Below, piece by piece: positions 7,394 to 32,668 of a stretch of DNA of 37,710 nt. Where the stretch lies: assembly GCA_021817305.1 (NCBI GenBank), contig JAKAVL010000022.1:3365-41074 (forward strand), written 5' to 3'. The DNA is from Candidatus Micrarchaeota archaeon (GTDB taxonomy: Archaea; Micrarchaeota; Micrarchaeia; Micrarchaeales; CABMGC01). Below the pieces are notes generated by a model, which was given only the letters and a program-made list of their open reading frames with translations, was not told the DNA's origin and did not search any database. The stretch's first letter is position 1. The number at the start of each line of letters is the position of its first letter. Position numbers and translations under genes: made by a program.

Positions 7394-7457
7394 ACCCTCA
7401 CATACAAAAATGCAACAACATAAATCTATTCCCACCTATATATGCCTGATGGTGTGA

Positions 7458-8630: not shown

Positions 8631-8760
8631 GTATATAAATTAATTCAAACATAGTGTAGCCATATTCTTCAGTCCTTTTGAAGGAATTGCAGCTCTGCGT
8701 TGGCAGGCGATTTTGCGTTTGCAAGAATATCTACGTTCAGCATTGCACACCGTGTTTCCA

Positions 8761-9339: not shown

Positions 9340-9347
9340 GTGATATA

Positions 9348-9626
9348 ATGATCAACTCCACAATCTCGATAAACCTGGGCTCCCCTGCTGACTACGCAAA
9401 GGTGGTCGGCAGCAGGCTCTCGTACTCGAATTCCGAGGCGCATCTTCGCGCAAAGGAAAACGTGCTGGAGATAAGCTTCTCCGCAGACGACGCGAAGTCT
9501 CTGCTGGCTGCGATGGGAAGCGTGATGCGCCAGCTCACAGTGGTCAACAATGCCCTCGAGTTCGCAGGACAACGTATAAATACCAAGAACAGTGAAAAGA
9601 GCAGGAACGGCAAGAAGGTAGTATAA
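9348..9626 (+). CDS. pcc1: KEOPS subunit Pcc1-like protein
   Basis: 92 aa. The pattern STISINLGSPADYAKVV...ENVLEISFSADDAKSLLAAMGSVMRQLTVVNNALEF matches archaeal Pcc1 (for example, as I recall it, the Pyrococcus ...ILDIKATDSSALRGTVNSYLRWIKAA...). The stop overlaps the rpl3 ATG (TAATG). Confidence 0.6.
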   Translation: MINSTISINLGSPADYAKVVGSRLSYSNSEAHLRAKENVLEISFSADDAKSLLAAMGSVMRQLTVVNNALEFAGQRINTKNSEKSRNGKKVV

Positions 9627-10585
9627 TGAAGAAAGGATCAATGGAGTACTGGCCGCACAGGCGCGCAAAGAGGCTGATGCCCAGAGTGCGCAACACCCCC
9701 AACTCCACAAACAAGGAGACCCTCGGCATGGTGGCGTTCAAGGCGGGGATGACCCACGTCATGATGATAGACGACACCGATGGCCCAGCAAAGGGCACTG
9801 AGGTTGCGCGCGCAGTCACTGTTCTGGAAATACCAAAGGTAAGCGTTTACGGGATAAGGTTCTACAGCAAGGGCTATTCATCGTACAGGCACTCACTCGG
9901 CGAGGCATATGACACTGCTCTAGCGGCAAAGGTCGGCATCAAGTCGGTGAAGAAGAACGACCTGGCGGGATTGAAGGGAATGTCAGACAAACTAGACGAC
10001 GCAACAGCACTGGCGTTCCTAGATGCATCAGTCCTCGGCTTTGGCAGCAAGCGCATAATGCGCTTCGAGATGCCTGTCGGCGGAAAGGACGTGCAGGAGA
10101 AGATAGCATTCATAGAAGGCATGCTCGGCAAGGAAGCGAAAATAAGCGAGTTCATCAAGCCGGGCGATTACATAGACGTCACAAGCGTAAGCAAGGGCAA
10201 GGGCTGGGCTGGAATAATCAAGAGGTTCGGTGCAGCAAGGCGCTACAGGAAGTCAACAGGAAAGATACGCCACATAGGAACCCTTGGGGCATGGCACCCC
10301 CCTAAGGTGCTCTTCGGAGTACTTCAGGCAGGCCATCTGGGCTACAACTACCGTACCGATATAAACAAGCGCGTGCTCAAGATAGGGAGCAACGCCGACG
10401 TGAATGCGGTGAACGTGAAGGGCGGCTTCCTGAACTACGGCCTGATAAAGAACGACTACATTCTTGTAGACGGCTCGATACCTGGGCCGGCGAAGCGCCT
10501 TGTCCGCATAAGGAAGTCGATAAGGAACAATTGGCCTGTCAAGCAGCCGCAGCTAAACTACATATCCTTGGCATCCAAGCAGTGA
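9626..10585 (+). CDS. rpl3: Ribosomal protein uL3
   Basis: 319 aa. WPHRRAKRLMPRVRN..., FKAGMTHV, KGKGWAGIIKRFG. Confidence 0.92.
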   Translation: MKKGSMEYWPHRRAKRLMPRVRNTPNSTNKETLGMVAFKAGMTHVMMIDDTDGPAKGTEVARAVTVLEIPKVSVYGIRFYSKGYSSYRHSLGEAYDTALAAKVGIKSVKKNDLAGLKGMSDKLDDATALAFLDASVLGFGSKRIMRFEMPVGGKDVQEKIAFIEGMLGKEAKISEFIKPGDYIDVTSVSKGKGWAGIIKRFGAARRYRKSTGKIRHIGTLGAWHPPKVLFGVLQAGHLGYNYRTDINKRVLKIGSNADVNAVNVKGGFLNYGLIKNDYILVDGSIPGPAKRLVRIRKSIRNNWPVKQPQLNYISLASKQ

Positions 10586-10590
10586 TATTC

Positions 10591-11388
10591 ATGGAAGTTG
10601 ACGTATATTCATTGGACGGAAAGGTCTCCGGAAAGGTGGCATTGCCATCTGCATTCTCGAAGGGCTTCAGGCCAGAGATAGTTCGCAGGGCAATACTCAG
10701 CGAGCAGAGCCAGGAATACCAGCCGCAGGGCCACAGCGTCATGGCAGGATTCAACACTACTGCGGTGTACGTAGGAAAATATTCAGGATACAGGCGCGGC
10801 AGGCACATGGGAATGTCCATCAGGCCGCGCCAGAAGCTCGGCGGCGGCGCAATGGGTGACGTACGCAGGGTGCCTTCGAGCGTCAAGGGACACAGGGCGC
10901 ATCCGCACAAGATAGAGAAGAGGATTACGGAGCAGATTAACAGGAAGGAATACCTTCTGGCCATAGAATCAGCGATATCCGGCGCAGCGAGCGCAGAGCT
11001 CGTGTTGAAGAAGCACGTCCTCGACAAGAAGGTTTTCCCACTCGTAGTGGACGACGGCATAGAGAAGGTCTCGAAGTCGAAGGAGCTCACAAAGGTCCTC
11101 GGCGCGCTGGGAGTGTCAAAGGACCTCGAGAAGTCGCACAAGCCTAGGCTCAGGAAGGGCACGGCGAGGCTCTCCTCAAAGAGGCACTTCAGGAACAGCG
11201 TGCTCATAGTCGCAAAGGACGCATCTTCGATAGGAAGGGCGGGGCGCAACATAGCGGGAGTGGACGTATGCGCCATAGACTCCCTGACGGTGTCGAAGCT
11301 GGCCCCCGGAGCGATTCCGAGGCTGATGCTGTGGAGCAAGTCCGCAGTCGAGGGCGTCGAGTCGGCCCTAAAGAAACAGGTATCATGA
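10591..11388 (+). CDS. rpl4: Ribosomal protein uL4
   Basis: Start at ATG 10591 (MEVDVYSLDGK...). Follows rpl3 in the conserved order. Confidence 0.9.
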   Translation: MEVDVYSLDGKVSGKVALPSAFSKGFRPEIVRRAILSEQSQEYQPQGHSVMAGFNTTAVYVGKYSGYRRGRHMGMSIRPRQKLGGGAMGDVRRVPSSVKGHRAHPHKIEKRITEQINRKEYLLAIESAISGAASAELVLKKHVLDKKVFPLVVDDGIEKVSKSKELTKVLGALGVSKDLEKSHKPRLRKGTARLSSKRHFRNSVLIVAKDASSIGRAGRNIAGVDVCAIDSLTVSKLAPGAIPRLMLWSKSAVEGVESALKKQVS

Positions 11389-16002: not shown

Positions 16003-17571
16003 ATGTCATGTATAAAAACAGAACCGCTCCGGGCATGTATTTATACTTATTCTTGGCTAATTACTAACAGTGTTTCCTTGTCAAAGAGAAGGACATTGTA
16101 TTTGGTAGGCATAGATTCGGCTCCCCTCCAGATAACGGCAGAACTGTCAAGGAAGAACGGTATGAAGGGCTTCGAAAAGATAATCAAAAATGGCACGTAT
16201 GCGGCCCTCGAGTCAACGCTTCCGCCGATAACGGCAGCGGCGTGGCCGACGATCTACACGGGCCTAAGTCCTGCAGCGCACGGAGTGATGAACTTCTTCT
16301 CACTTGACAAGGAGTACAACAAGCAGCTCACGTTCTACGATACGCAAAAGCACCCGCCGTTCTGGGACGTGCTCGCCAAGCACGGAAAGCGCAGCCTGGT
16401 CATAACTCCCGCCATGGTCGTCGAGCCTTCAAGGAGCGAAAACGTAGACATGATAACGGGCTTCCCGCTCAAGCCGAAGTTCAGCTCAAGAAGCATCGAG
16501 GAAGCGGCGGGCAAGTTCCAGTTCGCAGGAGAGCCTGAGATAGAGCAGGGCCTCAAGGAGGGAAGGATAAGCTTCGAGGATGCAACCCGCAGCTATGTGG
16601 AGAGCATACGCAAGCGCGCAGAAGTAAGCGCATACTTGTTGGAAAGGAAGCAATACGATCTTGTGCTCGTGTGCTTCACCGAAACGGACCGGATACAGCA
16701 TTATGCCCTAAGCCTGAAGAACTGGGAAGAACTCATCTCGCCTTTGTATGCGGAGATATCTAAGTTCATCGAGCGCATAACAAGCAACGCGGAGAAAAGC
16801 GGCGAGGACTTCGCCATAATGATAGTGTCAGACCACGGCGCACAGCCGATAAGGAAGAAGATACTGCTCAACAGCTGGCTAATAAAGAACGGCTACGCCT
16901 CACTCGGCTCGATAATAACCAAGAACGGCCTCAAGGTAGACACCTCGCAGTCCAGGCGCCTTGCCTCTGCAGAGGGGCTTCGCGAGGAGAGGTACTACGA
17001 GCAGCTGCGCATTTCATCGAAGTCGCCGGTCACCCGCTTTATATGTGCAAGCGAGGTCGAGACGAGCTACGAGGACTCGTTCTACAAGAGATCATTCGAC
17101 ATGAAGAACACGAAGGCGTTCGCATCGCTCTCTAACAATCCCGTGAGCAGCATATGGGCAAACGACGGCAGGTTCACCGAGCCCGGAATAAGCGATGGCT
17201 CAAAGAAAAGGACCGTAGACGAGATAAGCAAGAAGCTCAAAGAGCTCAGGGACGGAGACGTGAAAGTCATATCACGAATATCCATGGGCAAGGCGTACTA
17301 CGGCGATACGAGCCTCTTCATAGCCCCGGACCTGATCGTAGAGGCGAGCGACGGCTACACCATTGATGTGTTCAACCACTCGGAGGAGAGCGTGTTTGCT
17401 GAGCCAGAGCCTGCGCGCAGCGGGGACCACACGCGCGAGGGCGTCATGGGCTTCTATTCCAATTCGTCTTCCCTCGACTCGGAGAACCTCAGCGTGCTCG
17501 ACGTCTCGCCAATGGTACTAAGCTATCTGGGAATCAAGGGCCACGTCAGCAAGCTGAAACCAGGCGCATAG
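16003..17571 (+). CDS. Alkaline-phosphatase superfamily enzyme, nucleotide pyrophosphatase/phosphodiesterase (NPP)-like; start uncertain
   Basis: LVGIDSAP, TLPPITAAAWPTIYTGLSPAAHGV (Thr nucleophile region), IMIVSDHG. ATG 16003 leaves only 20 nt to the divergent nth start, so an in-frame TTG at 16078 is a plausible true start. Confidence 0.75.
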   Translation: MSCIKTEPLRACIYTYSWLITNSVSLSKRRTLYLVGIDSAPLQITAELSRKNGMKGFEKIIKNGTYAALESTLPPITAAAWPTIYTGLSPAAHGVMNFFSLDKEYNKQLTFYDTQKHPPFWDVLAKHGKRSLVITPAMVVEPSRSENVDMITGFPLKPKFSSRSIEEAAGKFQFAGEPEIEQGLKEGRISFEDATRSYVESIRKRAEVSAYLLERKQYDLVLVCFTETDRIQHYALSLKNWEELISPLYAEISKFIERITSNAEKSGEDFAIMIVSDHGAQPIRKKILLNSWLIKNGYASLGSIITKNGLKVDTSQSRRLASAEGLREERYYEQLRISSKSPVTRFICASEVETSYEDSFYKRSFDMKNTKAFASLSNNPVSSIWANDGRFTEPGISDGSKKRTVDEISKKLKELRDGDVKVISRISMGKAYYGDTSLFIAPDLIVEASDGYTIDVFNHSEESVFAEPEPARSGDHTREGVMGFYSNSSSLDSENLSVLDVSPMVLSYLGIKGHVSKLKPGA

Positions 17572-17572
17572 C

Positions 17573-18931
17573 ATGAAAAAGCTCTTCGGCACCAATGGCA
17601 TAAGGGGCATAACCAACAAGGAACTGGCTCCGGAGCTTGCGCTGGGTATGGGCAGGGCGATAGGTACCTATTTCAAGGAAGGCAGCAGAATTCTCATCGG
17701 CAGGGACATACGCGCCGGAGGCGACATGCTCGCTAGGGCACTCACAAGCGGGCTTCTCAGCGCAGGAATAGACGTTTGCTACGCAGGCATCCTGCCGACC
17801 CCAGTGCTCCAGTACAGCATAAGAAGCAACAAATACGACGGCGGCGTGATGGTGACGGCGAGTCACAATCCCCCGGAGTTCAACGGCATAAAGGTCATAG
17901 ATGCTGACGGCGTGGAGACAAACAGCGCGAACGAGGAAAAGATAGAGGAATACTACCTATCGGGAAACTTCAGGGCGGTTGACTGGAAGAGACTGGACCG
18001 CGACGTCATGGAGGTTCCACGACTGACAGGCCCGTACGTGGACAGCGTATTGAAGCATGTCGACGCAGAGAAGATTCGCGAGAGGAGATTCAAGGTGCTG
18101 ATCGACGGCGGAAACAGTGTCGGCTCGATAACCAGCAAGGCGATAGCAAGCTCCCTCGGGTGCGAAATCCACGAAATCAACACAGACCTCGATCCGCTGT
18201 TCCCGGGAAGGACGCCAGAGCCGACGCCAGCGAGCCTGGCAAAGACCGCTGAATCCGCAAAGAGGCTTGGCGTAGACATCACCGTTGCGCATGACGGAGA
18301 TGCGGATCGCGCAATATTTATAGACTCCGAGGGCAGGGTGCAGCTGGGCGACAAGAGCGGCGCCCTTCTTGCGTACTGGGCAGTCATTCGGAACGGGAAA
18401 TCAGACAAAAAGGTGGTAACTCCCTTCTCAAGCTCTGACCTTGTAGAGGAGTTCCTCAAGTTGCACGGCATAAGCACCGAGCGCACGAGGATAGGCAGCA
18501 TATTCGTCTCCAGAACGCTGATGAGCGGCGGAGGAATCGCAGGCTTCGAGGACAACGGAGGCTTCATATATCCAAGGCACCAGTGCGTGCGCGACGGCGC
18601 AATGGCATTCGCGTTCATGCTGGATTTTCTGGCCTCGCAGGGAAAGAGCTCAGCCGAATTGTTTGACATGCTTCCCAGATACTTCGTCGAGAAGATAAAG
18701 ATCCCGATGGACGGGATCAACACGGAAAATATTTTTGGCGCCATAACCGCAAAATACGGAGATACCTGCAGGGTCATCGACACGGACCACGACGGATTGA
18801 AGATGGCCGGAAATGGCTTCTGGTTCATAGTCAGAAAGAGCGGCACAGAGCCGGTGCTCAGGATAAGCGTCGAGGCCAAGGAAAAGGCCGTCCTTGATGA
18901 CACACTGGAAAATCTTAAGAAACTTGTATGA
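17573..18931 (+). CDS. Alpha-D-phosphohexomutase (phosphoglucosamine mutase / phosphomannomutase family)
   Basis: 452 aa. Active-site loop TASHNPPEFNGIKV and metal loop AHDGDADR. Confidence 0.88.
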   Translation: MKKLFGTNGIRGITNKELAPELALGMGRAIGTYFKEGSRILIGRDIRAGGDMLARALTSGLLSAGIDVCYAGILPTPVLQYSIRSNKYDGGVMVTASHNPPEFNGIKVIDADGVETNSANEEKIEEYYLSGNFRAVDWKRLDRDVMEVPRLTGPYVDSVLKHVDAEKIRERRFKVLIDGGNSVGSITSKAIASSLGCEIHEINTDLDPLFPGRTPEPTPASLAKTAESAKRLGVDITVAHDGDADRAIFIDSEGRVQLGDKSGALLAYWAVIRNGKSDKKVVTPFSSSDLVEEFLKLHGISTERTRIGSIFVSRTLMSGGGIAGFEDNGGFIYPRHQCVRDGAMAFAFMLDFLASQGKSSAELFDMLPRYFVEKIKIPMDGINTENIFGAITAKYGDTCRVIDTDHDGLKMAGNGFWFIVRKSGTEPVLRISVEAKEKAVLDDTLENLKKLV

Positions 18932-19890
18932 GCATATGTAGTGATACAATGTCAGGGAAAAGAGTACTGGTTGCAGGAGGAGCAGGATTCATAGGCAGCG
19001 CTATAGTGGACAGACTTGTCGAATCAGGTTACAGCGTGCGCGTCGTAGACGACCTATCTTCGGGAAAGAAGGAGAACCTGAGCGCGCACATGGGCAAGGG
19101 CTACTTTGAGTTTGTGGAAGGCAGCATAATTGACAAGAGCGTCGCAGAGAAGTCGGTAAATGGCGTAGACGCGGTGATAAGCATGGTCGGCATAGGGGAT
19201 CTTGCAAAGTCGGTCGCCAACCCGATGCACTACCACGAGGTAAACCTTACGGGCAACCTGAACCTGCTTATAGCCGCGCAGGGCAAGCAGATAAAGAAAT
19301 TCATATTTGCATCCTCCGGTGCTGTATACACGTCGAAGGCCATAGGCGTCATATCCGAGACTGCCGAATATGGGCCCGTGTCACCGTACGCGGCAACAAA
19401 GGTCTGCTTCGAGATATACGCGAGGACCTTCAATGAAGTCTATGGCATGGAGTGCGTGTGCTTCAGGTTCTTCAACGTGTACGGGCCCCGGCGCGAGAAC
19501 AGCACTTACGGCGGAGCTGTAACAAATTTCATGCTGAACGTCATGCACGGGAAGGAGATAACGATGTTCGGCACCGGAGAAGACAAGCGCGACTACGTCT
19601 ACGTCAAGGACGTCGCAAGGGCAGTCGTGATGGGCCTGAAGAAAGGAGTATCCGGGGAGTTCAACGTAGGCACCGGCACCGGCACCTCGACAAATGACCT
19701 TCTTGCAATGATAGAGGCGACGATTGGCAAGAACGCGAGTGTGAGCAGGGCACCGGCCCGCAAGGGCGACAGCCCGAGCAGGATAGGGAACATTTCCAAG
19801 ATAGGAAGCACTCTTGGGTATAAACCGGAATACTCCCTGGAGAAGGGCCTCGCCGAGTTGAAGGAATACCTAAAGGACAAGGGCGCATGA
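18928..19890 (+). CDS. NAD-dependent nucleotide-sugar epimerase/dehydratase (GalE-like SDR)
   Basis: VLVAGGAGFIGS Rossmann motif and catalytic SPYAATK (YxxxK). ATGA overlap with the upstream mutase gene. Confidence 0.85.
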   Translation: MSICSDTMSGKRVLVAGGAGFIGSAIVDRLVESGYSVRVVDDLSSGKKENLSAHMGKGYFEFVEGSIIDKSVAEKSVNGVDAVISMVGIGDLAKSVANPMHYHEVNLTGNLNLLIAAQGKQIKKFIFASSGAVYTSKAIGVISETAEYGPVSPYAATKVCFEIYARTFNEVYGMECVCFRFFNVYGPRRENSTYGGAVTNFMLNVMHGKEITMFGTGEDKRDYVYVKDVARAVVMGLKKGVSGEFNVGTGTGTSTNDLLAMIEATIGKNASVSRAPARKGDSPSRIGNISKIGSTLGYKPEYSLEKGLAELKEYLKDKGA

Positions 19891-19920: not shown

Positions 19921-21006
19921 CTATGCGCCGTCTATTATCCTTTCATATCCATTAACAACTTTCCCGAAGCTGAACCGCTTGATGAACTTTCTGGTGTTTG
20001 CGGCAAGCCTCTTCTGCAGCTTGGTGTCTGAATATAACCTGTAAAACTGACTGGAGAAGTCGCTCATGTCCCCATACCTGTATATAAGGCCATTGTACTT
20101 CTCCCTCACAATCGTTGCCTCTGGTTTTTTGCTTATCACGGTGTTTATGTTGTCGTTTATGAGCAGGGGCAGTCCGCAGGCCATCGCCTCAAGCAGCGAC
20201 CTGCTGAGCCCCTCCCATTCAGAAGTGGAGACCAGGAACGCGGCATTGTTGTATCTTTTCACAAGCTCCTTCCCAGTGAAGAAGCCCACAAAGCGTATGC
20301 TCTTCTGCAGCCCGAGCGAACTGACCAATGCCCTGTAGCTCTTCTCGTCCACGCCAGTGCCTATTATCCTAAGGAGCTCCACGCCCCTCAGCTCCGGGTG
20401 CTCCTCTATTACCCTCGCTATGCCCCTTATCATGAAGCCTATCCTCTTCTGTCGTTCGTCCAGCCTCGCAGACGCAAGCGCGCCATGGTATGTTTTCTTC
20501 GATTTAAGGATCCTGAACTCTTCGTGGGGCGCTATGAGTATGTACCGTACGTCTGTTCCGGCGCCGAAGAAGCGTTTCGCGTATTCGTACTGCTCAAGGC
20601 CTATCGCGACATAGTAGTCAAGCCACCTTCCCATGAGGGACACAAGGCCCCTCCGTATCACCATCTTAGGAAGAAGTCGCCTGAGGCCCCCGTCCCTGAA
20701 GTTCAGGAGGACGTTGCCGCGATCGACGTAAAGGAACTTTGCCCTGCCGCCACCATGCCTTTTTCTGTACCCATCGGCTATCAAGACGTCGCGTATCGAG
20801 TTCATCCACACGATGTCGTAATCTCTGGACATGAGCTGCTTCAGGGTGACCGTCTCCGCATGCTTGTCAATGCCAGAGAAGTTGCCATAGAGGTCTATGC
20901 TGTAATCCTTCCTGAGCCTGAGCTTGCTGTAAAGCTTGTAGGTGTCCTTGGCCGCACCACCAATCACCTTGAAGGAGCCTGACTCCATAATTAATACCCG
21001 TTTCAT
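19921..21006 (-). CDS. Glycosyltransferase, GT4-like (GT-B fold)
   Basis: 361 aa. C-terminal STSEWEGLSRSLLEAMACGLPLL (EX7E motif). Confidence 0.82.
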   Translation of the reverse strand: MKRVLIMESGSFKVIGGAAKDTYKLYSKLRLRKDYSIDLYGNFSGIDKHAETVTLKQLMSRDYDIVWMNSIRDVLIADGYRKRHGGGRAKFLYVDRGNVLLNFRDGGLRRLLPKMVIRRGLVSLMGRWLDYYVAIGLEQYEYAKRFFGAGTDVRYILIAPHEEFRILKSKKTYHGALASARLDERQKRIGFMIRGIARVIEEHPELRGVELLRIIGTGVDEKSYRALVSSLGLQKSIRFVGFFTGKELVKRYNNAAFLVSTSEWEGLSRSLLEAMACGLPLLINDNINTVISKKPEATIVREKYNGLIYRYGDMSDFSSQFYRLYSDTKLQKRLAANTRKFIKRFSFGKVVNGYERIIDGA

Positions 21007-21074: not shown

Positions 21075-21864
21075 ATGAGGTGCTTATATAATCGTATCAA
21101 GGGCGATAATAACCGCCGCAGGAGAAGGAAGGAGGATGCAGAGGGTCACCTCCGTAGTCCCAAAGGCGCTCCTCCCGCTTTTCAAGGGCGAGAATGGAGG
21201 AAAAATAGTCACGCCTATTGCTGATCTGATAATGGAATCTCTTGAATCGGCAGGCGTGTCGAGCTTCTGTTTTGTCGTTGGCAAACATCGCAATCTCCTC
21301 ATGGATTATATGTTTGAGCGAGGCGTAACATTTGTCTTCCAGAACCAGCCAAAGGGCTTCGGCGATGCCGTTTTGCGCGGCGAGGACTTCGCCAGCAGGG
21401 GGCCTATGTCCGGCAAGAGCCCTGTCTTCGTGCATGCTGATGACGGTGTGCTCACCGGCGGATACAAGGAGGCGGTAGAGCTTTTTTCGAAGATGAATGC
21501 AGACGGGGTGCTTCTGCTCAGGAAGACAAACAACCCAAAAAGATACGGAATAGCAGAGCCGGGTAAGGCGTTCACCCATCTGGGCCATAAGGCATTCGAG
21601 ATTGTCGGCGTGCAAGAGAAGCCCGAGAATCCCAGGTCAGACATGCTCATATCCGCAGTCTACTTGCTGTCTCACAAGATATTCAAGGCCATAAAGGACG
21701 CATCACCAGAACACGGCGAGATACAGCTGACCACAGGAATTCAGAACCTAATAAAGGAAGGCCATAAAGTATACGGCATACTGCTCGAGAAGGAGCAGTG
21801 GCTCAATGTGGGCGATACGGAGAGCTACCACAAGGCCCTTGAGTATTCCTACAAGAACCTCTAA
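21075..21864 (+). CDS. Sugar-1-phosphate nucleotidyltransferase (UDP-glucose pyrophosphorylase-like). The N-terminus is disrupted or non-canonical; the intact ORF starts only at 21136.
   Basis: In-frame codons upstream of ATG 21136 encode ...RAIITAAGEGRR-M-QRVTSVVPKALLPL, the GxGxR...PKxLLP signature, yet no ATG/GTG/TTG lies before the upstream stop. ATG 21075 sits behind TATA ggatataaag and comes into frame if one G of GGG 21101-21103 is removed. Confidence 0.75.
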
Positions 21865-23037
21865 CTATCTCGCGTTTTCTGTTTTTCTCCAGTTGGTGTA
21901 CGGAAGAATCCTGTTGTGGAACCTGCTCATGTGCTCCTTGTACGGCACAAGGTCCTGTATAAGCTGGCCTGTGAGATCAGCCATCTTGAGCTTCGGCTTG
22001 AAGCCGAGGCCCGGCAGCACCTTTATCTCGGGATTGTAGTGGTGCCTGTCCGCCTCTACTCTCGGGTTCTCATGCTTTCCTATCGTAACCTCAATGCCTA
22101 GCCTCTTCGCTGCTTTCTGCACCGTCTCCGCTATCTGGTTTATGCTCAGCAGCTCAACGAACTGGTTAGCTACCCTGTACTCGCCATGCTCCGGAGGGTT
22201 CTCTATGAGCAGGCTCAGCGCCTGCACACTGTCCTCAAGCGAGAGATATCCGCGCACCTGCTGGCCGCTCCCGTAAACTGTCAGCGGAATGCCAAGCACC
22301 GACTCGACGCAGAACCTGTTGACAACGGTTCCCCACACCTCGTCGAAGTCGAAGCGAGTGTGCAGCTTCTCGTCTGTTATCTCCTTGGTCCTCGTGCCGT
22401 AAACCGGTCCCTGCATTATATCTGTAAACGTAAGCTTCAGCACCTTGTTCGCGAAGAGTATGTTATTAGTATCATGAACCTTGGACCAGTGGTACCATGA
22501 GCCTGCGAACTTCGGAGTAGTTATCCTGTCCTTTCTGCCTTTTATCTCAACGTCAACGTACGCTGACTCGGGTATGTCGAAATTCGGTGTGCCGTACTCT
22601 CCCATGGTTCCCATCTTCACGACATGCGCCGACGGATTTGTCTCCATCATGGAATAAATGAGATTGATGGTCCCCGAGATGTTGTTTGTCAGGGTGTAAG
22701 TCGCGTGCTTTGCGTTTATCATCGAATACGGGGCGGATCTTGTCTCTGCGAAGTGCACCACCGCATCCGGCTTCTCCTCCTTCATGACCTTGTGGAGGAA
22801 CTCGTAGTCCGTTATGTCCCCTTCATGGAATTTCATGTTGAATCCATGGATGTCCTTTGCAGCCTTTATCCTGTCTTTCATTGCCGGGATAGGTATCGCC
22901 GAATCAGAGCCCACCTCCTTGACGTTCTTCCTTGTCACAAAGTTGTCGACTCCTATTACATCATGGCCCCTTGCCAAAAGCCTGAGCGACAAAGGCCAAC
23001 CAAGATAACCGTCAGCTCCTAGTACCACTACTTTCAT
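21865..23037 (-). CDS. agl3: UDP-sulfoquinovose synthase (SQD1/Agl3 family SDR)
   Basis: 390 aa. VLGADGYLGW, HFAETRSAPYSM, GTMGEYGTPNFDI, WYHWSKVHD, NRFCVESVLGIPLTVYGSGQQVRGYL, NPRVEADRHHYN. As recalled, these are near-identical in pattern to plant SQD1 and Sulfolobus Agl3. Confidence 0.85.
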   Translation of the reverse strand: MKVVVLGADGYLGWPLSLRLLARGHDVIGVDNFVTRKNVKEVGSDSAIPIPAMKDRIKAAKDIHGFNMKFHEGDITDYEFLHKVMKEEKPDAVVHFAETRSAPYSMINAKHATYTLTNNISGTINLIYSMMETNPSAHVVKMGTMGEYGTPNFDIPESAYVDVEIKGRKDRITTPKFAGSWYHWSKVHDTNNILFANKVLKLTFTDIMQGPVYGTRTKEITDEKLHTRFDFDEVWGTVVNRFCVESVLGIPLTVYGSGQQVRGYLSLEDSVQALSLLIENPPEHGEYRVANQFVELLSINQIAETVQKAAKRLGIEVTIGKHENPRVEADRHHYNPEIKVLPGLGFKPKLKMADLTGQLIQDLVPYKEHMSRFHNRILPYTNWRKTENAR

Positions 23038-23070
23038 GATATCACCAATATTATTGCGTGCAAAACCTTA

Positions 23071-24297
23071 TCATACTTTTGTAATCGTGCAGATGCCTGC
23101 AAAGACGTCATCGCTGTACAGCACAAATCTTCCCAGTTCCTTTGTTGCGCGGTACTCCTCAACAGGCAGTTTCCTGTCGAATTCGACTCTGGCGTCAATA
23201 GCGTTGAGCACTTCCGGAGTTTTGCGCTGCATCTTTTCTCCCGTAGTGGTGTCGATGCCGTCTATCACATCAACCGACCTGCATCCCATGTCTATGCCAT
23301 TGAATTTTACGTGCAGCTTTTTTCCTATGACTCCGGTGACAAATATCCTTGCAGTCACCGAGTCAACGACCCGCGGCCTGTCATCGATTCCGGATATCAC
23401 GGCCCCCCTCAGCCCGAATCCCGCCTTGCTATCCAGGGTTATCGCGGCATTTTCTCCAATGCCGGCAGAATTCACCCTCCTGCCCTTGACTATTATCTCT
23501 TTCACCTTGGCATTGTGCCCATTAGGCAAGATATCCACCTTATCCCCTTCCGTCAGCCTGCCGCTTATGACTTTGCCTGCGATGATGTTGCCCTCGGAGT
23601 CTATGGCGCCCTGGACCACTATCCTGAGCGCACTCCCGCTGCCTGCGCCGCTAGCATCGGCAAAGATGCCGTATATGGAATCTATCAAAGTGCTTCCGCC
23701 ATACCACGCCATCTTTCCGCTTTTCTTGACAAGGTTCTCGCCGTTGTACGCAGATATGGGCACAAAGCGCACGTCTCTTTCCTCAAAACCTATCCTGCTT
23801 ATGAATTTCCCAAGGCTGTCCCTTATGCTGTTGAAACTTCCTTCTTCATAGCCCATGCTGTCCATCTTGTTAACCGCAACCACAAGCCTGTCTATGCCGA
23901 GCATGCGCGCTATGAACAGGTGCCTCTTCGTCTGGTCCCGTATCCCCTCGTCGCCCTTCGCGGACACTAGAAGCACGGCTACCTCGCCGTAGCTTGCGCC
24001 GCTTATCATGTTCTTTATGAGCTCCTCGTGCCCCGGCACGTCGATGAATGAGAAGGCCAAATCCTTGTACTTTATCTGCGCGCGCGTAGTGTCATAGGTC
24101 ATCCCCTGCTCGCGCTCCTCGGAAAAGCTGTCGAGTATGAACGCAGGCTCGAAAGGCTTGCGCAGCTTCTCGCTGTACGCCTTTGCCTCGTTTATCCTCA
24201 CCTGCGTGGCAGAACCTGTCTGCATGAGCATGCTGCCTATTAGCGTTGACTTGCCGTGGTCCTTGTGGCCCAGAAGTGCGATTGTCTTTACTATCAT
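23071..24297 (-). CDS. cysN: EF-1alpha-like GTPase, sulfate adenylyltransferase large-subunit (CysN)-like
   Basis: G1 GHKDHGKST, G3 DVPGHEEL, G4 NKMD, followed by beta-barrel domains. It lies immediately downstream of cysD. No APS-kinase domain. Confidence 0.72.
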   Translation of the reverse strand: MIVKTIALLGHKDHGKSTLIGSMLMQTGSATQVRINEAKAYSEKLRKPFEPAFILDSFSEEREQGMTYDTTRAQIKYKDLAFSFIDVPGHEELIKNMISGASYGEVAVLLVSAKGDEGIRDQTKRHLFIARMLGIDRLVVAVNKMDSMGYEEGSFNSIRDSLGKFISRIGFEERDVRFVPISAYNGENLVKKSGKMAWYGGSTLIDSIYGIFADASGAGSGSALRIVVQGAIDSEGNIIAGKVISGRLTEGDKVDILPNGHNAKVKEIIVKGRRVNSAGIGENAAITLDSKAGFGLRGAVISGIDDRPRVVDSVTARIFVTGVIGKKLHVKFNGIDMGCRSVDVIDGIDTTTGEKMQRKTPEVLNAIDARVEFDRKLPVEEYRATKELGRFVLYSDDVFAGICTITKV

Positions 24298-24301
24298 CTC
24301 C

Positions 24302-25090
24302 TCACATGTATCCGAGCGACCTTAAGCGCTGCATGACGTATTCCCGCTCCTTGTCCATGCTTCTGCCGGATCTCTCCTCGCCGGTAGTGGTCTCAAGCTC
24401 ATTTATTATGTCATCCACTGTCTTTGCCTCCGACCTCAATGGCACGGTGCAATGCGTGCATCCCAAACTTCTGTATCTATGTCCATTTCTTGAGAAATAA
24501 AGCGGATTGACCGGTATGTTTTCCTGCTTGACGTAGCTCCATATGTCGATCTCGTTCCAGTCCAGAAGCGGGTGCACCCTGATATGGCCTTTCTTGTCCA
24601 TCTTCGAGGAATAATCATCCCATAGCTCCGCGGGCTGATCTTTGTAATTCCACCTGAACTCCTCGTCGCGGGGGCTCATATAACGCTCCTTCGCGCGAAT
24701 TCCATGCTCGTCCCTCCTTATCGAAACTATGAGAGCATCGAATCCGTGCTCCTCCATCACCTTCTTGAGGGTTTCCGGCTTATTCTTGCCGCAGCATGCG
24801 GATCCGACGAGATCGGGCTTTATCTCGCTCTGCGCAACTATCAGGTCAAGGTTCCATTCCTTTGCAAGGTCCTGCCTGAACTTATATGTCTCTGGGAAGT
24901 CAATGCTATTATCAATGTGAATAACGGGGAAGGGCACCTTTCCCAAAAACGCCTTCCTCGCCAGCGCAAGCATGGTGGTAGAATCCTTTCCCATGCTCCA
25001 TAGCGCAGCTATGTTCTTGAACTTCATCTTCGCTTCGCGTATCACGTAAATGCTTCTCTCTTCCAGAACGTTCAAATCCTGCTTAATCAT
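24302..25090 (-). CDS. cysD: Sulfate adenylyltransferase small subunit (CysD), a variant with a CC...CxxC cysteine set
   Basis: PP-loop SMGKDS, RRDEHGIRAKERYMSPRD...QPAELWDDY, RVHPLLDWNEIDIW, RYRSLGCTHCT, C-terminal LRSLGYM. Confidence 0.85.
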   Translation of the reverse strand: MIKQDLNVLEERSIYVIREAKMKFKNIAALWSMGKDSTTMLALARKAFLGKVPFPVIHIDNSIDFPETYKFRQDLAKEWNLDLIVAQSEIKPDLVGSACCGKNKPETLKKVMEEHGFDALIVSIRRDEHGIRAKERYMSPRDEEFRWNYKDQPAELWDDYSSKMDKKGHIRVHPLLDWNEIDIWSYVKQENIPVNPLYFSRNGHRYRSLGCTHCTVPLRSEAKTVDDIINELETTTGEERSGRSMDKEREYVMQRLRSLGYM

Positions 25091-25389
25091 TCGCTCACCT
25101 TGTTTGAAACCTGAAGCCCCATCAAGTATATCGTGGCGCCGCGCACCTTCTTGCCCTCCTTCTTCACTATTGGGACTTTCGTTATGGGCTTGTATTCGGC
25201 ATCGTAAATCTCTGCATACGATTTCGTGAGGTCCTGCATCTTGCTGAGCTTGCCTTCATTCGCGAACACGACCTTGTAATACGCGGCATTGCTGCCCACC
25301 AAAGCCCCGGCGAACTCCCCCCATTTCTCATCGCTCTGCTCCCTCCAGAGCTCCTCCGCTGCCTTTTCAAGCTTAGAGTTGCCTGCCAT
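25087..25389 (-). CDS. Hypothetical 100-aa protein, translationally coupled to cysD
   Basis: ORF whose stop overlaps the cysD ATG (ATGA). No Cys, no TM segment, and no family recognised. Confidence 0.55.
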   Translation of the reverse strand: MAGNSKLEKAAEELWREQSDEKWGEFAGALVGSNAAYYKVVFANEGKLSKMQDLTKSYAEIYDAEYKPITKVPIVKKEGKKVRGATIYLMGLQVSNKVSE

Positions 25390-25405
25390 AAAACCACTAA
25401 ACTAA

Positions 25406-25633
25406 CTATCCCGTGTATCCAAGGGCCTCAAGCTTCTCTATGACAGCGCCCTTCGTCTTCTTGTCCTTGTTGTTCATGTCTATCATGGTCTCGCGGAGCA
25501 CAAACGTCACCCAGTCCGAAACCGACGAGAAACCCGTGTCCTCTATGCTCCTGCTTATCCTGTCGAACAGAGGCTGCGGTATGGTTATTGTTGTGTACTT
25601 CCTCACCGCCTTCCCAACCCTTTTCGGTTTCAT
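25406..25633 (-). CDS. Ribbon-helix-helix (CopG/Arc/MetJ-like) transcriptional regulator
   Basis: 75 aa. YTTITIPQPLFDRISRSIEDTGFSSVSDWVTFVLRE fits the beta-strand plus two-helix RHH pattern. First gene of the operon. Confidence 0.7.
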   Translation of the reverse strand: MKPKRVGKAVRKYTTITIPQPLFDRISRSIEDTGFSSVSDWVTFVLRETMIDMNNKDKKTKGAVIEKLEALGYTG

Positions 25634-25641
25634 AGGCTCAC

Positions 25642-25675
25642 TTACATTACAATGTAATTTAATGTTACCACATTA
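25642..25675. promoter_or_regulatory. Two adjacent inverted repeats built from ACATT/AATGT half-sites (candidate operator) between the TATA and the RHH start codon
   Basis: TTACATT-ac-AATGTAA (25642-25657) and TAATGT-tacc-ACATTA (25660-25675). A TATA-like atatataaa at 25677-25685 follows directly. Confidence 0.45.
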
Positions 25676-25769
25676 AATATATAAAGATATCGCCCGCCTT
25701 GGCCGGATAGGCCCACTGCACGGAAGCAATAAAAGCATGTATCTGCAATACTTCTGTGAAGGTAATAGG

Positions 25770-28936: not shown

Positions 28937-29560
28937 CTCTCGAAGAAGGGCAAGCGGCACTCACATTGCTGTTAAGTTGGCAACAAGAATTTTTGCGCTT
29001 ACATCTAAGTCGACCAAGTGATTACTACCTCCCCCGCATTGCCATTGGAACCAGAGCCACCTCCCTCTCCTATGGTTCCTGACGGATTTCCCGCAGTGTC
29101 ACCGCTGCCTCCTGTATTTGTAATGCTGCTTACTGTTATGGAGTTCGCCCAGCTTGAGCCCCCTCCTCCTCCGCCTGGCGTAGCCCCTCCAGGATCGCCT
29201 CCACCTCCTCCAAAATATCCACAACCTCCCCCTCCACCCGGAACTCCGGTGTCAACGGAAGCCCCGCTTCCTCCGTTATAGCCGCTCCCGCTGCCGCCAG
29301 CTCCTCCGCCACTACCCCCGGCCGTTTGTGTTCCTCCATAACCCCCATAGGTGCCTGTGCCAGCCTGCCCTGCAGTTCCCCCACCAGCTCCGCCGCCTCC
29401 CGCAGCATAATAACTTCCCCCGCCTCCTCCTGCGGCTACGATGATAACACTTGGATTGGACAATGAAGCAGTGCTACTTATGGCAGAACAACCGCCACCA
29501 CCTCCGCCCCCGTTACTTACCGTACTGCCTCCTCCGTTTAAGCCTCCAGTGTAACCAGTG

Positions 29561-29570
29561 CCCCTCCCCC
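29561..29570 (-). repeat. Homopolymer tract G5-A-G4 (minus strand) at the frame-switch point of the glycine-rich gene
   Basis: The plus strand reads cccctccccc. The frame changes between ...YVYVGGG and GTGYTGGLNGGG... Confidence 0.8.
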
Positions 29571-30310
29571 TACATATACATAAAGCGGTGTACCTGGACT
29601 TGTACTATAAATGCCTTCTATGTATCCGCCACCACCTCCATAAGCATGTCCCCCGCTTCCTCCCCCTCCCCATAACTGGAATGTTGCCTGGTTACAGCCT
29701 GCAGGCACAGTCACCGAATATGGGCCTCCTGCAATGCCAAAAGTGTTTGCCGGAGCAGTGCAACTTGGGCCGCTGACTACTGTATTCGACGTCACCGCCT
29801 TCGCTGTGAGCGTCGCGATCTGGCTCACCTGCCCTGTTTGGCCGTTCTTAGTGTACTGTATCCACAGTGTGCCTGTGAAGGCCGCGCCTATGGCGTTCGA
29901 TGCAAGAGGGCACTGGAATACCATGCTTAGCGTCTCGCCCGACACAACATTTGCTGTTATGCTGTTGAATGATGATGGTGTGCCGCTGCTGCCGGAGACG
30001 CAGGCGGTGCCTGTTATGCCGATGCCCGCGCCGAGGCCCTCGCCGAACGTTACGAGGACGTTGCCCGTTGTGTTCATCATGGGTCCTTTGCACTCGAATC
30101 CGAACTGCGCGAGGCACGATGACGTGAACGCGCCCGCGCCGCCGCCGAAGGCGCCTGTTATGTACAGCGCAAGGACCACCACGACGATGACGAGTATGCT
30201 CCACCCATAGGTCGTGAGGTACTCCATCGCGCCCTGCGCTTTCGATGAAACCTTTCCTAAAGGCTTCGCTGACTTAGGCCTGTAACTGTGGCTAACTGCC
30301 GCTGCTTTCT

Positions 30311-30461: not shown

Positions 30462-31106
30462 ATGCCGGAATTGCGCCTGATAGTTGACAACAGGGAGCGG
30501 AACCTTGAGATAATCGACAGCTTGGCGCAGGAGAACGTGAAACTGTCATTCGCACAGCTGCCTGTCGGCGACTACATAGTATCGGACCGGATGTGCGTGG
30601 AGCGCAAGACCGTCCGCGATTTCGAAAGCTCCATAATAGACTCGAGGATATTCGATCAGGCGTCAAGGCTGAAGGATGCTTTCAAGAACCCGATAATACT
30701 GATCGAAGGAGATCTCGGCGAGTGCACTCTGGGAAGGAACGCGGTTCTCGGCGCCATACTCTCCCTGTACACGGATTACGGAGTGCTTGTTGCCTATTCC
30801 GGAAGCCCCTCAGACACGTCTTACATGCTATCTAAGTTCGCGGAGCGCGAGCAACTCCAGAAAAAAAGGGAGCCGCGTCTTGCAGGGAGCAAGAAGGCAT
30901 ACACGCAGTACCAGTGGCAGCTGATGATACTCGGCTCGCTGCCTGGCATAGGCCCGAGCCTTGCGAGGAACCTCATCAACAGCTTCAAGACCATACGCAA
31001 CCTGTGCAATGCAGAAGTCAAGGAACTCATGGAGGTAGACAAGATAGGCAAGAAGAAGGCAGAGGCCGTATTCAAGGTGCTGAACTCGGAGTTCACGGTG
31101 GAGTGA
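30462..31106 (+). CDS. xpf: ERCC4-type structure-specific nuclease, short archaeal XPF form (nuclease domain plus (HhH)2)
   Basis: VDNRE, GDYIVSDRMCVERKTVRDF (GDxnERKx3D), and C-terminal HhH LPGIGPSLARNL / VDKIGKKKAE. Confidence 0.85.
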   Translation: MPELRLIVDNRERNLEIIDSLAQENVKLSFAQLPVGDYIVSDRMCVERKTVRDFESSIIDSRIFDQASRLKDAFKNPIILIEGDLGECTLGRNAVLGAILSLYTDYGVLVAYSGSPSDTSYMLSKFAEREQLQKKREPRLAGSKKAYTQYQWQLMILGSLPGIGPSLARNLINSFKTIRNLCNAEVKELMEVDKIGKKKAEAVFKVLNSEFTVE

Positions 31107-31738
31107 TGTGGGGCATACGCGGCTTCTTCGAGACCGGAGAGGAGAAGGCCTTCACGCAAACCAAGGGCATACTGCGCATAGCGCATAAGGCCAACCATCT
31201 CCTCAACGACATAATAAGGGGCATGAGCAGCATCGACGATATCAAAAAGCTGGAGAGGGAATCATCGAGGGAATACTTCAAGGCGTCGCATGTCATAGTG
31301 TCCGGAGCGATAGCCCCCAATCTGATAGACAACATGATAATAATGGTGGGCAAGGAGGAGAACATCACGGACTCGGTCTTCAAGCTGTCGAGACAGCTCA
31401 TGCGCTACAGGGTAAAGGGCAGGAAGATCAACGATTATGTAAACGGAAAGATGCATGAATTCAACAGGCTCGCCGATTCAGCGATAACAATGCTCATAGA
31501 GATGCACGGCACGAAGAGCATAAGCAGGATGCGCGAGCTAAGGCACAGGATAAAGGCCATAGAGAACAAGGGCGATGCGGTGCGCGACTCGCTCCTAGAC
31601 TACGCGTACAAGGCCAACGTAGGGTTCAAGGGATTCTACCACATAACCGACCTGGCATATTTGTATGACGACATATTGGACGACTGCGAGGACTCGTCGG
31701 ACATATTCATGAGCATAGTCCTCGCACTGGCGACATAG
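31106..31738 (+). CDS. DUF47 / PhoU-like helical protein (transporter-associated)
   Basis: Predicted all-helical ~210-aa protein directly upstream of a PiT-family permease, which is the usual DUF47-Pit pairing. The ATG overlaps the xpf stop (TGATG). Confidence 0.65.
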   Translation: MWGIRGFFETGEEKAFTQTKGILRIAHKANHLLNDIIRGMSSIDDIKKLERESSREYFKASHVIVSGAIAPNLIDNMIIMVGKEENITDSVFKLSRQLMRYRVKGRKINDYVNGKMHEFNRLADSAITMLIEMHGTKSISRMRELRHRIKAIENKGDAVRDSLLDYAYKANVGFKGFYHITDLAYLYDDILDDCEDSSDIFMSIVLALAT

Positions 31739-31747
31739 CGTGGTTAT

Positions 31748-32668
31748 TTGCTCGCGGAAATCATAGACCTTGCGCTCGTTTTCGTCCTCGTCGCACTTGT
31801 ATCGGGAAACAACCTGTCCGCATGCGCAGGACCCGCCATAACCGGAAGGGTAGTAAAGAGGAGAACCGGGGTTGTCCTCACAATAATAGGGTACGCTGCC
31901 GGCTTCCTGCTTCAGGGTCAGATATTGCGCAGTGGGGTTAGCAGGCTCATACCGTTCGGCAATTCTCTGATTCCTATAATATTCATAATCTCGATAGCGG
32001 TGTTCATAATCGCGCACAGGAAGCGCGTGCCAGAGTCGCTCTCCGTCACGTTCATCTCCGCTCTAATTGGTGTTGGGCTCGCGTACGGCACCCTCGACAC
32101 GGGGTTCGTGGCAGAGATACTGCTCTTCTGGATAATCGCCGGCATTCTATCCCTCGTGATGGCGTCAGTCGCGCTGCGCGCAGTGCAGAAGGCCCTGTAC
32201 AGGGACAAGGTCTGGAATGGAGTGAGGACAGTGCGCATCCTTCTCCTAGTGTTGTCGTTCTTCACCTCATTTACCCTAGGCGCGAACACCATAGGGGTTG
32301 TCGCATCTGTGCTCCAGCCGACGTGGTACGCATATGTCGTTATACTGCTTGCAATAGTCCTCGGCAGCTTCCTGTTGAGTTCTGGGGAGCTGCGCAGGAT
32401 AGGCAACGAGATAATACCGATCCGCTATGCTAATGCGCTCGTGTCGCAGCTTGTCGCTGCCGCGTTCGTCGAGTTCGCCACCCTCCTCAGCATACCCATA
32501 TCGAACACGCAGATGCTGACAAGCACCATTTACGGCACGGGCCTCGGCTACAAGGAAAAGCTTCTCTCAAAGAAGCCGGCCGTGCAGATAGCATCCATCT
32601 GGATATTCACCGCTGTTTTCAGCGTTTCTGTTGCTTACGCCGCGGCGCGCATCATTGTTCTTCTCTGA
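31748..32668 (+). CDS. PiT (PHO4)-family anion permease, divergent
   Basis: 306-aa polytopic membrane protein. It has two internally repeated signature-like segments, SGNNLSACAGPAITGR and LGANTIGVVAS, in the positions of the PiT GANDVAN-type motifs. TTG start. Confidence 0.65.
   Translation: MLAEIIDLALVFVLVALVSGNNLSACAGPAITGRVVKRRTGVVLTIIGYAAGFLLQGQILRSGVSRLIPFGNSLIPIIFIISIAVFIIAHRKRVPESLSVTFISALIGVGLAYGTLDTGFVAEILLFWIIAGILSLVMASVALRAVQKALYRDKVWNGVRTVRILLLVLSFFTSFTLGANTIGVVASVLQPTWYAYVVILLAIVLGSFLLSSGELRRIGNEIIPIRYANALVSQLVAAAFVEFATLLSIPISNTQMLTSTIYGTGLGYKEKLLSKKPAVQIASIWIFTAVFSVSVAYAAARIIVLL

Follow-up and report, generated by a model that had tools for sequence, protein, structure and literature searches.

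Gene content of the locus

We analysed a 37,710-nt stretch of DNA from an archaeon of the Micrarchaeales (DPANN), hereafter called the window, and in particular five minus-strand genes at positions 21865–25633 together with their neighbours. These genes bring together sulfate activation and UDP-sulfoquinovose synthesis. The first encodes a probable ribbon-helix-helix regulator (RHH, 25406..25633, 75 aa). It is followed by a conserved small protein (orf100, 25087..25389, 100 aa), by CysD, the catalytic subunit of GTP-driven ATP sulfurylase (24302..25090, 262 aa), by a GTPase of the EF1A/CysN superfamily presumed to be the CysN-like partner (23071..24297, 408 aa, with GTP_EFTU and domains 2 and 3) and by the UDP-sulfoquinovose synthase SQD1/Agl3 (21865..23037, 390 aa). 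An earlier note on this DNA had presented the five genes as a dedicated unit joining sulfate activation directly to SQD1, with no sulfite-forming enzyme. The gene identities were as it stated, and its spacings of 16, -4 (an ATGA overlap of orf100 onto cysD), 4 and 33 nt were recovered from the coordinates of the open reading frames (ORFs).

The sugar genes adjoining SQD1 were likewise recovered by Pfam and NCBIfam searches. A plus-strand sugar-1-phosphate nucleotidyltransferase (21136..21864; NTP_transferase, PF00483, with weak GalU/AglF/RmlA-type matches), probably a glucose-1-phosphate uridylyltransferase, is followed by a minus-strand family 4 glycosyltransferase (GT4, 19921..21006; PF00534, PF13692). 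Then come, on the plus strand, an NAD-dependent sugar epimerase/dehydratase (18928..19890; PF01370 197.8 bits, and a GalE-like match of 183 bits, under the cut-off), an archaeal GlmM-type phosphohexomutase (17573..18931; TIGR03990 494.7 bits for a cut-off of 439) and an enzyme of the alkaline-phosphatase (AP) superfamily (16003..17571; PF01663 117.9 bits), which resembles nucleotide pyrophosphatases/phosphodiesterases and carries a Thr-nucleophile motif. The PF01663 gene is 497 aa long in the public contig (L001, 6454–7947) and 522 aa as the longest ORF; translation probably starts 25 codons into the longer frame, which begins at position 16003. A PDB sequence search with this protein returned one marginal, apparently unrelated match (4gak, E = 0.002).

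A four-gene module conserved across Micrarchaeota

A scan for CysD, with one genome kept per species, gave 80 loci. Nearly all of them carry a Micrarchaeota label, and they include that of the closed genome of Ca. Micrarchaeum A_DKE. CysD is flanked by RHH in 78 of these loci, by orf100 in 73 and by the GTPase in 78. SQD1 lies within 10 kb of CysD in only two of them. Tight spacing is ordinary for archaeal genes; the recurrence of RHH, orf100 and the GTPase around CysD exceeds chance, and the four genes RHH-orf100-CysD-GTPase form a phylum-wide conserved module. The dedicated cysDN-SQD1 unit proposed in the earlier note found no support, the conserved unit being these four genes without SQD1. 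Across species CysD is 70–91% identical, compared with 51–86% for the threonyl-tRNA synthetase (ThrRS) encoded in the same loci. CysD homologues at 75–96% identity to that of the window come from metagenome-assembled genomes (MAGs) of Candidatus Micrarchaeota/Micrarchaeia, and the nearest relative locus is that of MAS4.bin50 (Micrarchaeales, CABMGC01), with 85–90% protein identity.

When the flanking ORFs were clustered, the commonest neighbours of the module were GT4 (28 loci), a sulfatase-like AP-superfamily enzyme in which Thr replaces the formylglycine residue (24 loci) and PF01663 (22 loci). An AP-superfamily gene of either kind is found within 5 kb downstream of the GTPase in 44/77 loci, and GT4 is the gene immediately downstream of it in 18/77 Micrarchaeota loci. 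Two loci of a distant lineage (L167 and L168) show a related arrangement: orf99, a homologue of orf100 (40% identity, 70.8 bits with a hidden Markov model), overlaps a CysD without GTPase, which is followed by a sulfatase-like gene, all inside a rhamnose/glycosyltransferase cluster. The module is unmentioned in the Micrarchaeota genome papers PMC5864196, PMC8975820, PMC5498576 and PMC8784108, and no description of it was found in the literature searched on Micrarchaeota sulfate activation and DPANN sulfoquinovose.

Two redox-type genes were observed near the module. In 8 Micrarchaeota loci (e.g. L150, 8922–9383) the gene directly preceding RHH encodes a peroxiredoxin (AhpC/TSA), and in 8 loci (e.g. 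L149, 14097–15044) a 315-aa thioredoxin-reductase-like flavoprotein is encoded near the module. These neighbours may reflect mere synteny or a thiol/redox link to the chemistry of adenosine 5'-phosphosulfate (APS).

A short CysD with reductase-type cysteines

The window CysD matched the family model NF003587 with 301.7 bits (cut-off 195) and an APS-reductase model with only 57 bits. It matched Pseudomonas syringae CysD (PDB 1ZUN_A) with 192 bits and about 45% identity, including the CysD-specific C-terminal tail, whereas an insertion of ~35 aa (1ZUN 232–266) is missing from it. The stricter E. coli-type models were missed (TIGR02039, 217 against 396.6 bits; NF009214, 223 against 413 bits). As judged by its sequence, the protein belongs to a distinct short subclass. 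The PP-loop motif SxGKDS is present as SMGKDS at residues 32–37. In two alignments the C-terminal tail, DKEREYVMQRLRSLGYM, is of the CysD type (ER-GR..DKE...GY[MF]) and not of the reductase type: the catalytic Cys of the ECG[LI]H motif is absent, while bona fide APS reductases in the alignment end in KECGLH.

The window CysD contains exactly four cysteines, a CC pair at 99/100 and a CxxC at 211/214. C99, C100, C211 and C214 share alignment columns with the Fe-S ligands of the APS reductases of loci L164 and L034, and three of these four columns are unoccupied by Cys in E. coli/Pseudomonas-type CysD. The window protein shares PF01507 and the four Cys columns with assimilatory APS reductases (L164, L034 and the N-terminal domain of P0126), from which it differs by the missing tail Cys and by an overall CysD-like sequence. 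Both motifs occur in all 120 close homologues (P0001–P0120) and in 54 of 150 representatives at 50% identity; members of the class beyond the 120 include P0122, P0123, P0127 and P0129. The ~35-aa insertion seen in proteobacterial CysD is missing from the class in general. Some short-class CysDs (P0121, P0132 and P0134) have lost the cysteines. The four-Cys site probably binds a [4Fe-4S] cluster. The literature searched does not describe an Fe-S site or Fe-S ligands for CysD.

Several members of the short class occur with separate enzymes for the next step. In L164 a short Fe-S CysD immediately adjoins a canonical CysH, with a 544-aa CysN. In P0126 (517 aa) an N-terminal APS reductase domain, with its ECGLH, is fused to a short CysD, and in P0130 (430 aa) and P0135 (448 aa) the fused domain is an APS kinase. 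The fused members and those linked to CysH or to a permease are 48–51% identical to the window CysD. Since the catalytic Cys is replaced and since class members stand beside, or are fused to, CysH or APS kinase, we read the short class as genuine ATP-sulfurylase subunits that would have retained an ancestral reductase-type cluster, and not as reductases. The idea of a bifunctional sulfurylase/reductase was downgraded for the same reasons.

Two further observations concern the class. LAGLIDADG inteins interrupt three CysD genes (P0124, P0128 and P0153, 674–737 aa). In L166, a short CysD gene (10001–10852) without GTPase has a GT4 and an anion permease of the TauE/SafE type as neighbours. For the rest, the contig is rich in replication genes (family B DNA polymerase, RNase H-like, ERCC4) and in small ORFs without assignment, and it may represent a viral or plasmid genome with genes for sulfate activation.

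The GTPase, orf100 and RHH

The GTPase scored 230.9 bits with the CysN model TIGR02034 (cut-off 336.1) and 277 and 248 bits with EF-1alpha models, also below their cut-offs. Its PDB matches were archaeal EF1A (aEF1A, 218 bits) and CysN (168 bits). The G1, G3 and G4 motifs are intact (GHKDHGKS, DVPGH and NKMD), with an SA-Y stretch at the G5 position. Pfam detected GTP_EFTU domains only and no APS-kinase (CysC) domain, in agreement with the earlier note. From its context the protein is presumed to work like CysN, although by sequence it is not a clear member of the CysN family.

The window genes thus resemble bacterial CysDN (P. syringae 1ZUN; E. coli) in having a PP-loop subunit with a CysD tail and an EF1A-family GTPase encoded by adjacent genes. 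They differ in several respects. CysD is short, with CC...CxxC at the APS-reductase Fe-S positions; the GTPase resembles archaeal EF-1alpha no less than CysN and lacks an APS-kinase domain; the unit adds the conserved 100-aa protein and the RHH regulator; and no downstream assimilation genes were found near the window module.

These scores raise the question of whether the module activates sulfate at all. FMN adenylyltransferases belong to the same Pfam family as the PP-loop CysD. The PP-loop protein could adenylate another substrate, or act with the GTPase on tRNA or protein, and the link to SQD1 would then be coincidental. The higher score of the GTPase with aEF1A than with CysN, the presence of FAD synthase among the PDB matches to CysD and the existence of relatives without any GTPase (L166, L167) are consistent with such a function. 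However, the score of CysD with its own family, its identity to P. syringae CysD up to and including the tail, and the class members with a fused APS kinase or APS reductase domain, or encoded next to CysH or a TauE-type anion permease, all argue for sulfate, and we regard a function other than sulfate activation as highly improbable.

No Pfam or NCBIfam family matched orf100, and a word search of databases returned only 17 homologues. Cysteine is lacking from 56/62 orf100 homologues. Its AlphaFold2 model (mean predicted local distance difference test 77.5) matched no PDB fold significantly (best E = 0.41). A role as thiol carrier or reductase subunit was rejected on these grounds, orf100 having no conserved Cys.

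The RHH assignment is based on a weak match to the N-terminal part of NikR (E = 0.004) and on a typical sequence pattern. Between ThrRS and RHH, just upstream of the RHH start, a strong archaeal TATA-like box, TTTATATATTTAA, followed by two overlapping palindromes, was found at 25642..25685. The inverted repeats lie at 25642–25662 and 25657–25678; the arms of one are ATTTAATGT/ACATTAAAT (perfect, 9 nt), those of the other TTACATTACA/TGTAATTTAA. This region is likely the promoter/operator of the module and a candidate operator for RHH; the palindromes may thus serve in autoregulation. The 33-nt gap before SQD1 holds AATAATATT about 20 nt upstream of the ATG. Because of this element SQD1 may have its own transcription start, and a single five-gene transcript is only plausible.

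SQD1 and the nucleotidyltransferase as a separate cassette

As judged by sequence, the 390-aa protein is squarely a UDP-sulfoquinovose synthase SQD1/Agl3. It matched the NCBIfam equivalog NF041015 over its full length (1–384/384) with 630.7 bits for a cut-off of 575, and is 59–62% identical to Sulfolobaceae orthologues. The residues needed in Sulfolobus Agl3 have been defined by mutagenesis (PMC4388408). In the alignment all of them are kept: His95, Arg(100/101), Thr144, Met145, Glu147, Tyr148, Tyr182 and Lys186, and the stretches VVHFAETRSAP, GTMGEYG and SWYHWSKVHD are found at matching positions. The Thr/Tyr/Lys catalytic set of short-chain dehydrogenases/reductases (SDR) is thereby present as well. 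The window protein is therefore alike, in these residues and in passing the equivalog, to the characterized Sulfolobus acidocaldarius Agl3 and Arabidopsis SQD1 (PMC4388408). The setting differs in that the host is a DPANN symbiont with a reduced genome, and SQD1 is flanked by a CysDN-type sulfurylase with no sulfite source encoded nearby.

We surveyed the best 80 SQD1 loci of archaea and bacteria, a sample which finds close relatives. A homologue of the nucleotidyltransferase lies within 300 nt of SQD1 in 40/80 loci and within 3 kb in 52/80. SQD1 and the nucleotidyltransferase thus form a separate, widespread cassette, which travels independently of the module.

The cassette is also seen in bacteria. 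In four Verrucomicrobiia loci (L006, L007, L008 and L019), one of them on a 1.83-Mb contig, SQD1 (at about 10001–11170 in L007) is 74–77% identical to that of the window and is adjoined by a nucleotidyltransferase 60–63% identical to the window's. Since these SQD1s are nearer to the window SQD1 than are most archaeal ones, their sequences suggest a recent transfer of the two-gene cassette across domains, between Verrucomicrobiia and archaea.

The earlier note had proposed a survey of SQD1 neighbourhoods for linkage to cysD/cysN. Such linkage was found in a few Micrarchaeales loci and nowhere else among the best 80. CysD and the GTPase lie within 10 kb of SQD1 in L003, L004, L009, L014 and L021, all of Micrarchaeota type, while neither was found that close to SQD1 in ~60 loci from Thermoplasmata, Sulfolobales, Bathyarchaeia, Marsarchaeota and Verrucomicrobiia. 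One more case, L100, comes from DBS2-1.bin104, a genome of 793 kb (77.6% complete) of the same family as MAS4.bin50. Its order is RHH-orf100-CysD-GTPase-GT4-epimerase-SQD1-PF01663, with a divergent SQD1 (520 bits). Counting L100, SQD1 is near the module in about six Micrarchaeales lineages and in four arrangements.

In relatives without SQD1 (e.g. L133), the GTPase is directly followed by GT4 and PF01663, the genes found just past the SQD1-nucleotidyltransferase pair in the window. As these relatives join the GTPase directly to GT4/PF01663, the pair looks like a cassette inserted next to the module. Conversely, in the closed genome of the cultivated Micrarchaeon ARM-1, SQD1 (631 bits) stands alone among housekeeping genes. 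Its authors reported most sulfur-assimilation genes to be absent (PMC8784108). Since SQD1 is isolated there and those genes are reported absent, at least one Micrarchaeon apparently runs SQD1 on sulfite that it does not make itself.

Sulfate activation next to SQD1 in other archaea

Complete clusters were observed in two other lineages. In L176 (Nanobdellati, DPANN, from groundwater; 8002–11173), NeuB, CysH, Sat, SQD1 and an epimerase are encoded on one strand. This locus came from an alignment-based scan aimed at divergent SQD1s of Micrarchaeota, in which most of the 600 matches listed belonged to other phyla. In L034 (a Bathyarchaeia MAG; 7008–11155), TrmB, CysH and Sat are divergent from SQD1; a TrmB-family regulator also adjoins SQD1 in L035, L038, L040 and L082. 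Both clusters look like dedicated sulfite supply lines for sulfoquinovose. They share with the window the presence of sulfate-activation genes beside SQD1 in glycan clusters and, for L176, a DPANN host. They use a homo-oligomeric Sat and a CysH with an ECGLH tail, in contrast to the window, which uses CysDN and has no reductase. A sulfurylase, a sulfonucleotide reductase and SQD1 are thus not found together in the window, where only the first, of the CysDN type, and the last are present.

An APS kinase is located 1–2.5 kb from SQD1 in six Thermoplasmata and three Bathyarchaeia loci. Five of the six Thermoplasmata loci (L047, L053, L054, L063 and L073) also carry a PF01663 gene, and L079, again from Thermoplasmata, has PF01663 and Sat near SQD1 with no APS kinase detected. 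The gene order in these five loci (L063, 11269–15602) is SQD1, nucleotidyltransferase, APS kinase, a conserved 392-aa protein without Pfam or NCBIfam match, and PF01663. As in the window, SQD1 is linked there to sulfate activation and to PF01663 with no reductase in cis. The activation gene is however CysC, which converts APS to 3'-phosphoadenosine 5'-phosphosulfate (PAPS), and not CysDN, and the PF01663 proteins share only about 25% identity with their counterpart in the window. SQD1 is thus repeatedly partnered with sulfate activation, and the complete clustered pathways include a CysH-type enzyme.

Search for the sulfite-forming step

We scanned 40 ORFs of the window, which account for almost every plausible gene of 110 aa or more, with Pfam. 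No PAPS_reduct domain besides that of CysD, and no APS_kinase, ATP-sulfurylase or NIR_SIR domain, was detected in them. The absence of a reductase, APS kinase or sulfite reductase from operon and window, on which the earlier note had insisted, was thereby upheld. The search was extended to ±10 kb around ~85 Micrarchaeota modules (~1.6 Mb) by phmmer with CysH, CysC and Sat queries. Apart from CysD itself, which the CysH queries picked up, these flanks yielded no PAPS_reduct protein, and neither an APS kinase nor a Sat.

For related genomes we used part of a METABOLIC table of DPANN MAGs from acid mine drainage (supplement of PMC12153355), comprising ~14 MAG columns, MAS4.bin50 not among them. 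Seven Micrarchaeales MAGs in these columns are cysD-positive, including DBS2-1.bin104. All seven are scored absent for cysH, cysC, cysNC, aprA, aprB, sat and cysJ, and the organosulfonate enzymes that form sulfite are scored absent in the same seven (PMC12153355). The earlier note had named a canonical reductase elsewhere in the genome, together with ordinary cysteine assimilation, as the finding that would speak against it; neither the ±10 kb flanks nor these columns of the table contain one.

Where would the sulfite for SQD1 come from? The note had left the choice between a reductase elsewhere and an undescribed route. The reductase is indeed missing nearby, but adjacency alone gives no argument for an undescribed route, because the unit is composite and because dedicated clusters elsewhere include CysH. 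In the ordinary pathway, CysDN would make APS and an unlinked or divergent reductase in trans would make sulfite for SQD1, the cluster being a genuine sulfate-to-sulfoquinovose supply line without one gene in cis. The repeated occurrence of SQD1 beside CysDN in Micrarchaeales, in four arrangements, and the complete cysH-sat-SQD1 clusters of Nanobdellati and Bathyarchaeia point in this direction. In Thermoplasmata, where an APS kinase stands beside SQD1 without a local reductase, a reductase in trans would be the normal layout. The KOfam thresholds also miss divergent members, as the GTPase itself is scored 'cysN absent' in the part of the table considered. Several results argue against this explanation: no second PAPS_reduct appeared in ~1.6 Mb of flanks although the CysH queries were able to detect CysD; cysH and aprAB are scored absent in the seven related MAGs of those columns; most modules have no SQD1 nearby and, without sulfite reductase, such species would have no use for sulfite; and the genomes are of about 0.8–1 Mb, with sulfur assimilation reported largely absent in ARM-1 (PMC8784108). 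We consider a reductase in trans possible, if on the unlikely side. If true, the locus would represent an ordinary pathway in an unusual host.

The undescribed route would require that a complex of orf100, Fe-S CysD and GTPase frees sulfite from bound APS, or that SQD1 takes a sulfo group derived from APS; the complex would possibly include a thiol protein or an AP-superfamily enzyme. It draws on the four cysteines of CysD, which in APS reductases bind [4Fe-4S] by the APS sulfate and which are kept in 120/120 close homologues, on orf100 as an obligate, translationally coupled partner without recognised fold, on the lack of a canonical reductase in the module flanks and in the seven MAG columns, and on the peroxiredoxin and thioredoxin-reductase-like genes near the module in 8–12 loci. 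Against it, the catalytic C-terminal Cys (ECGLH) is replaced in CysD, orf100 has no conserved Cys, and P0121, P0132 and P0134 do without the cysteines. Moreover, proteins of the same Fe-S CysD class adjoin a separate CysH or are fused to CysH or APS kinase, which implies that the cluster alone confers no reduction, and most modules are not accompanied by SQD1. Such a route appears improbable.

A proposed composite cell-surface glycan island

Taken together, these results lead us to favour, with a probability of about 45%, a reading of the locus as a composite cell-surface glycan island of a Micrarchaeales archaeon and not as a dedicated sulfate-to-sulfoquinovose operon. The module would be a GTP-driven ATP sulfurylase, in which PP-loop adenylyl transfer to sulfate yields APS and is driven, like that of CysDN, by the hydrolysis of GTP. 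The role for which the module is conserved would not depend on SQD1: since most modules have no SQD1 nearby and the genomes show no use of sulfite, the purpose of the module is presumably not sulfoquinovose, and APS would most likely serve another glycan decoration, e.g. O-sulfation. Because GT4 and AP-superfamily neighbours are persistent, they would take part in the decoration of surface glycans or lipids. SQD1 would be an add-on of the window lineage, adding sulfoquinovose to the same island. The phosphohexomutase and the nucleotidyltransferase would provide UDP-glucose, SQD1 would combine it with sulfite to UDP-sulfoquinovose, and the GT4 would presumably transfer the sugar. The sulfite could come from the acidic, sulfur-rich surroundings, from a sulfur-metabolising host, or from APS via an unrecognised step.

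Several points weigh against a composite island. SQD1 stands beside the module in four different arrangements, and elsewhere it recruits Sat and CysH (L034, L176), CysC (Thermoplasmata, Bathyarchaeia) or Sat (L079). Since SQD1 repeatedly recruits activation genes, the coupling of sulfate activation to sulfoquinovose could be real. No sulfotransferase was identified in our analysis, and to our knowledge APS-dependent sulfotransfer by an AP-superfamily enzyme has no verified precedent. The SQD1 survey was confined to the best 80 loci and leaves the genome-wide absence of SQD1 from most CysDN species unproven. Finally, the scores in the METABOLIC columns were obtained with strict thresholds, which the GTPase also failed, on MAGs about 67–78% complete. 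Agl7, a sulfation factor of Haloferax, was considered as a sulfatase-fold precedent and was not used, its family not being confirmed from the paper text.

A bolder proposal, which we hold to be unlikely, is that orf100, the iron-sulfur CysD and the EF1A-like GTPase constitute an unrecognised APS-consuming system. Usually together with AP-superfamily enzymes, it would supply the glycans of the cell surface with sulfur from sulfate and would need neither APS kinase nor PAPS-dependent sulfotransferase nor CysH-type reductase. It could operate by APS-dependent O-sulfation, carried out by a sulfatase-fold transferase, or by a reductase-independent release of sulfite that SQD1 captures.

The clustering of sulfate activation with SQD1 in archaeal glycan islands is already known, with complete versions in public genomes. 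What differs here is a CysDN-type sulfurylase with an Fe-S CysD, the obligatory orf100 and RHH, a DPANN host and the lack of a reductase, a combination not described in the literature searched. Acidophilic archaea have charged surfaces shaped by sulfoquinovose and sulfated sugars, and DPANN symbionts rely on cell-cell contact with their hosts. A module which is kept in at least 80 Micrarchaeota species with genomes of ~0.8–1 Mb, and which is more conserved than ThrRS, must do something important. Should APS be used without canonical kinase, sulfotransferase or reductase, this would be new sulfur biochemistry and would offer a handle on DPANN surface chemistry. The short Fe-S CysD and the EF1A-like GTPase also bear on the origin of CysDN from a reductase-like PP-loop enzyme and an archaeal EF-1alpha.

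Other genes of the window

The remaining genes of the window are archaeal housekeeping genes (ribosomal proteins, ThrRS, primase and others), with a few additions. At 31748–32668, 6 kb from the module, is encoded an anion transporter of the PiT/PHO4 family, preceded by an ORF without Pfam match (within 30914–31738). The PiT family includes a Bacillus sulfate permease, and the transporter could be a candidate sulfate importer. Two adjoining minus-strand ORFs at 29005–30227 matched no family. The first (152 aa) is extremely Gly-rich; the second (229 aa), with a hydrophobic N-terminus and a Gly-rich C-terminus, resembles archaeal pilin/surface proteins. Far from the cluster, at 5105–6106, lies a gene for a DHH/DHHA1 phosphoesterase of 333 aa. 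Enzymes of this family can serve as phosphatases of 3'-phosphoadenosine 5'-phosphate (pAp) in sulfate assimilation; the window protein may simply be a nanoRNase.

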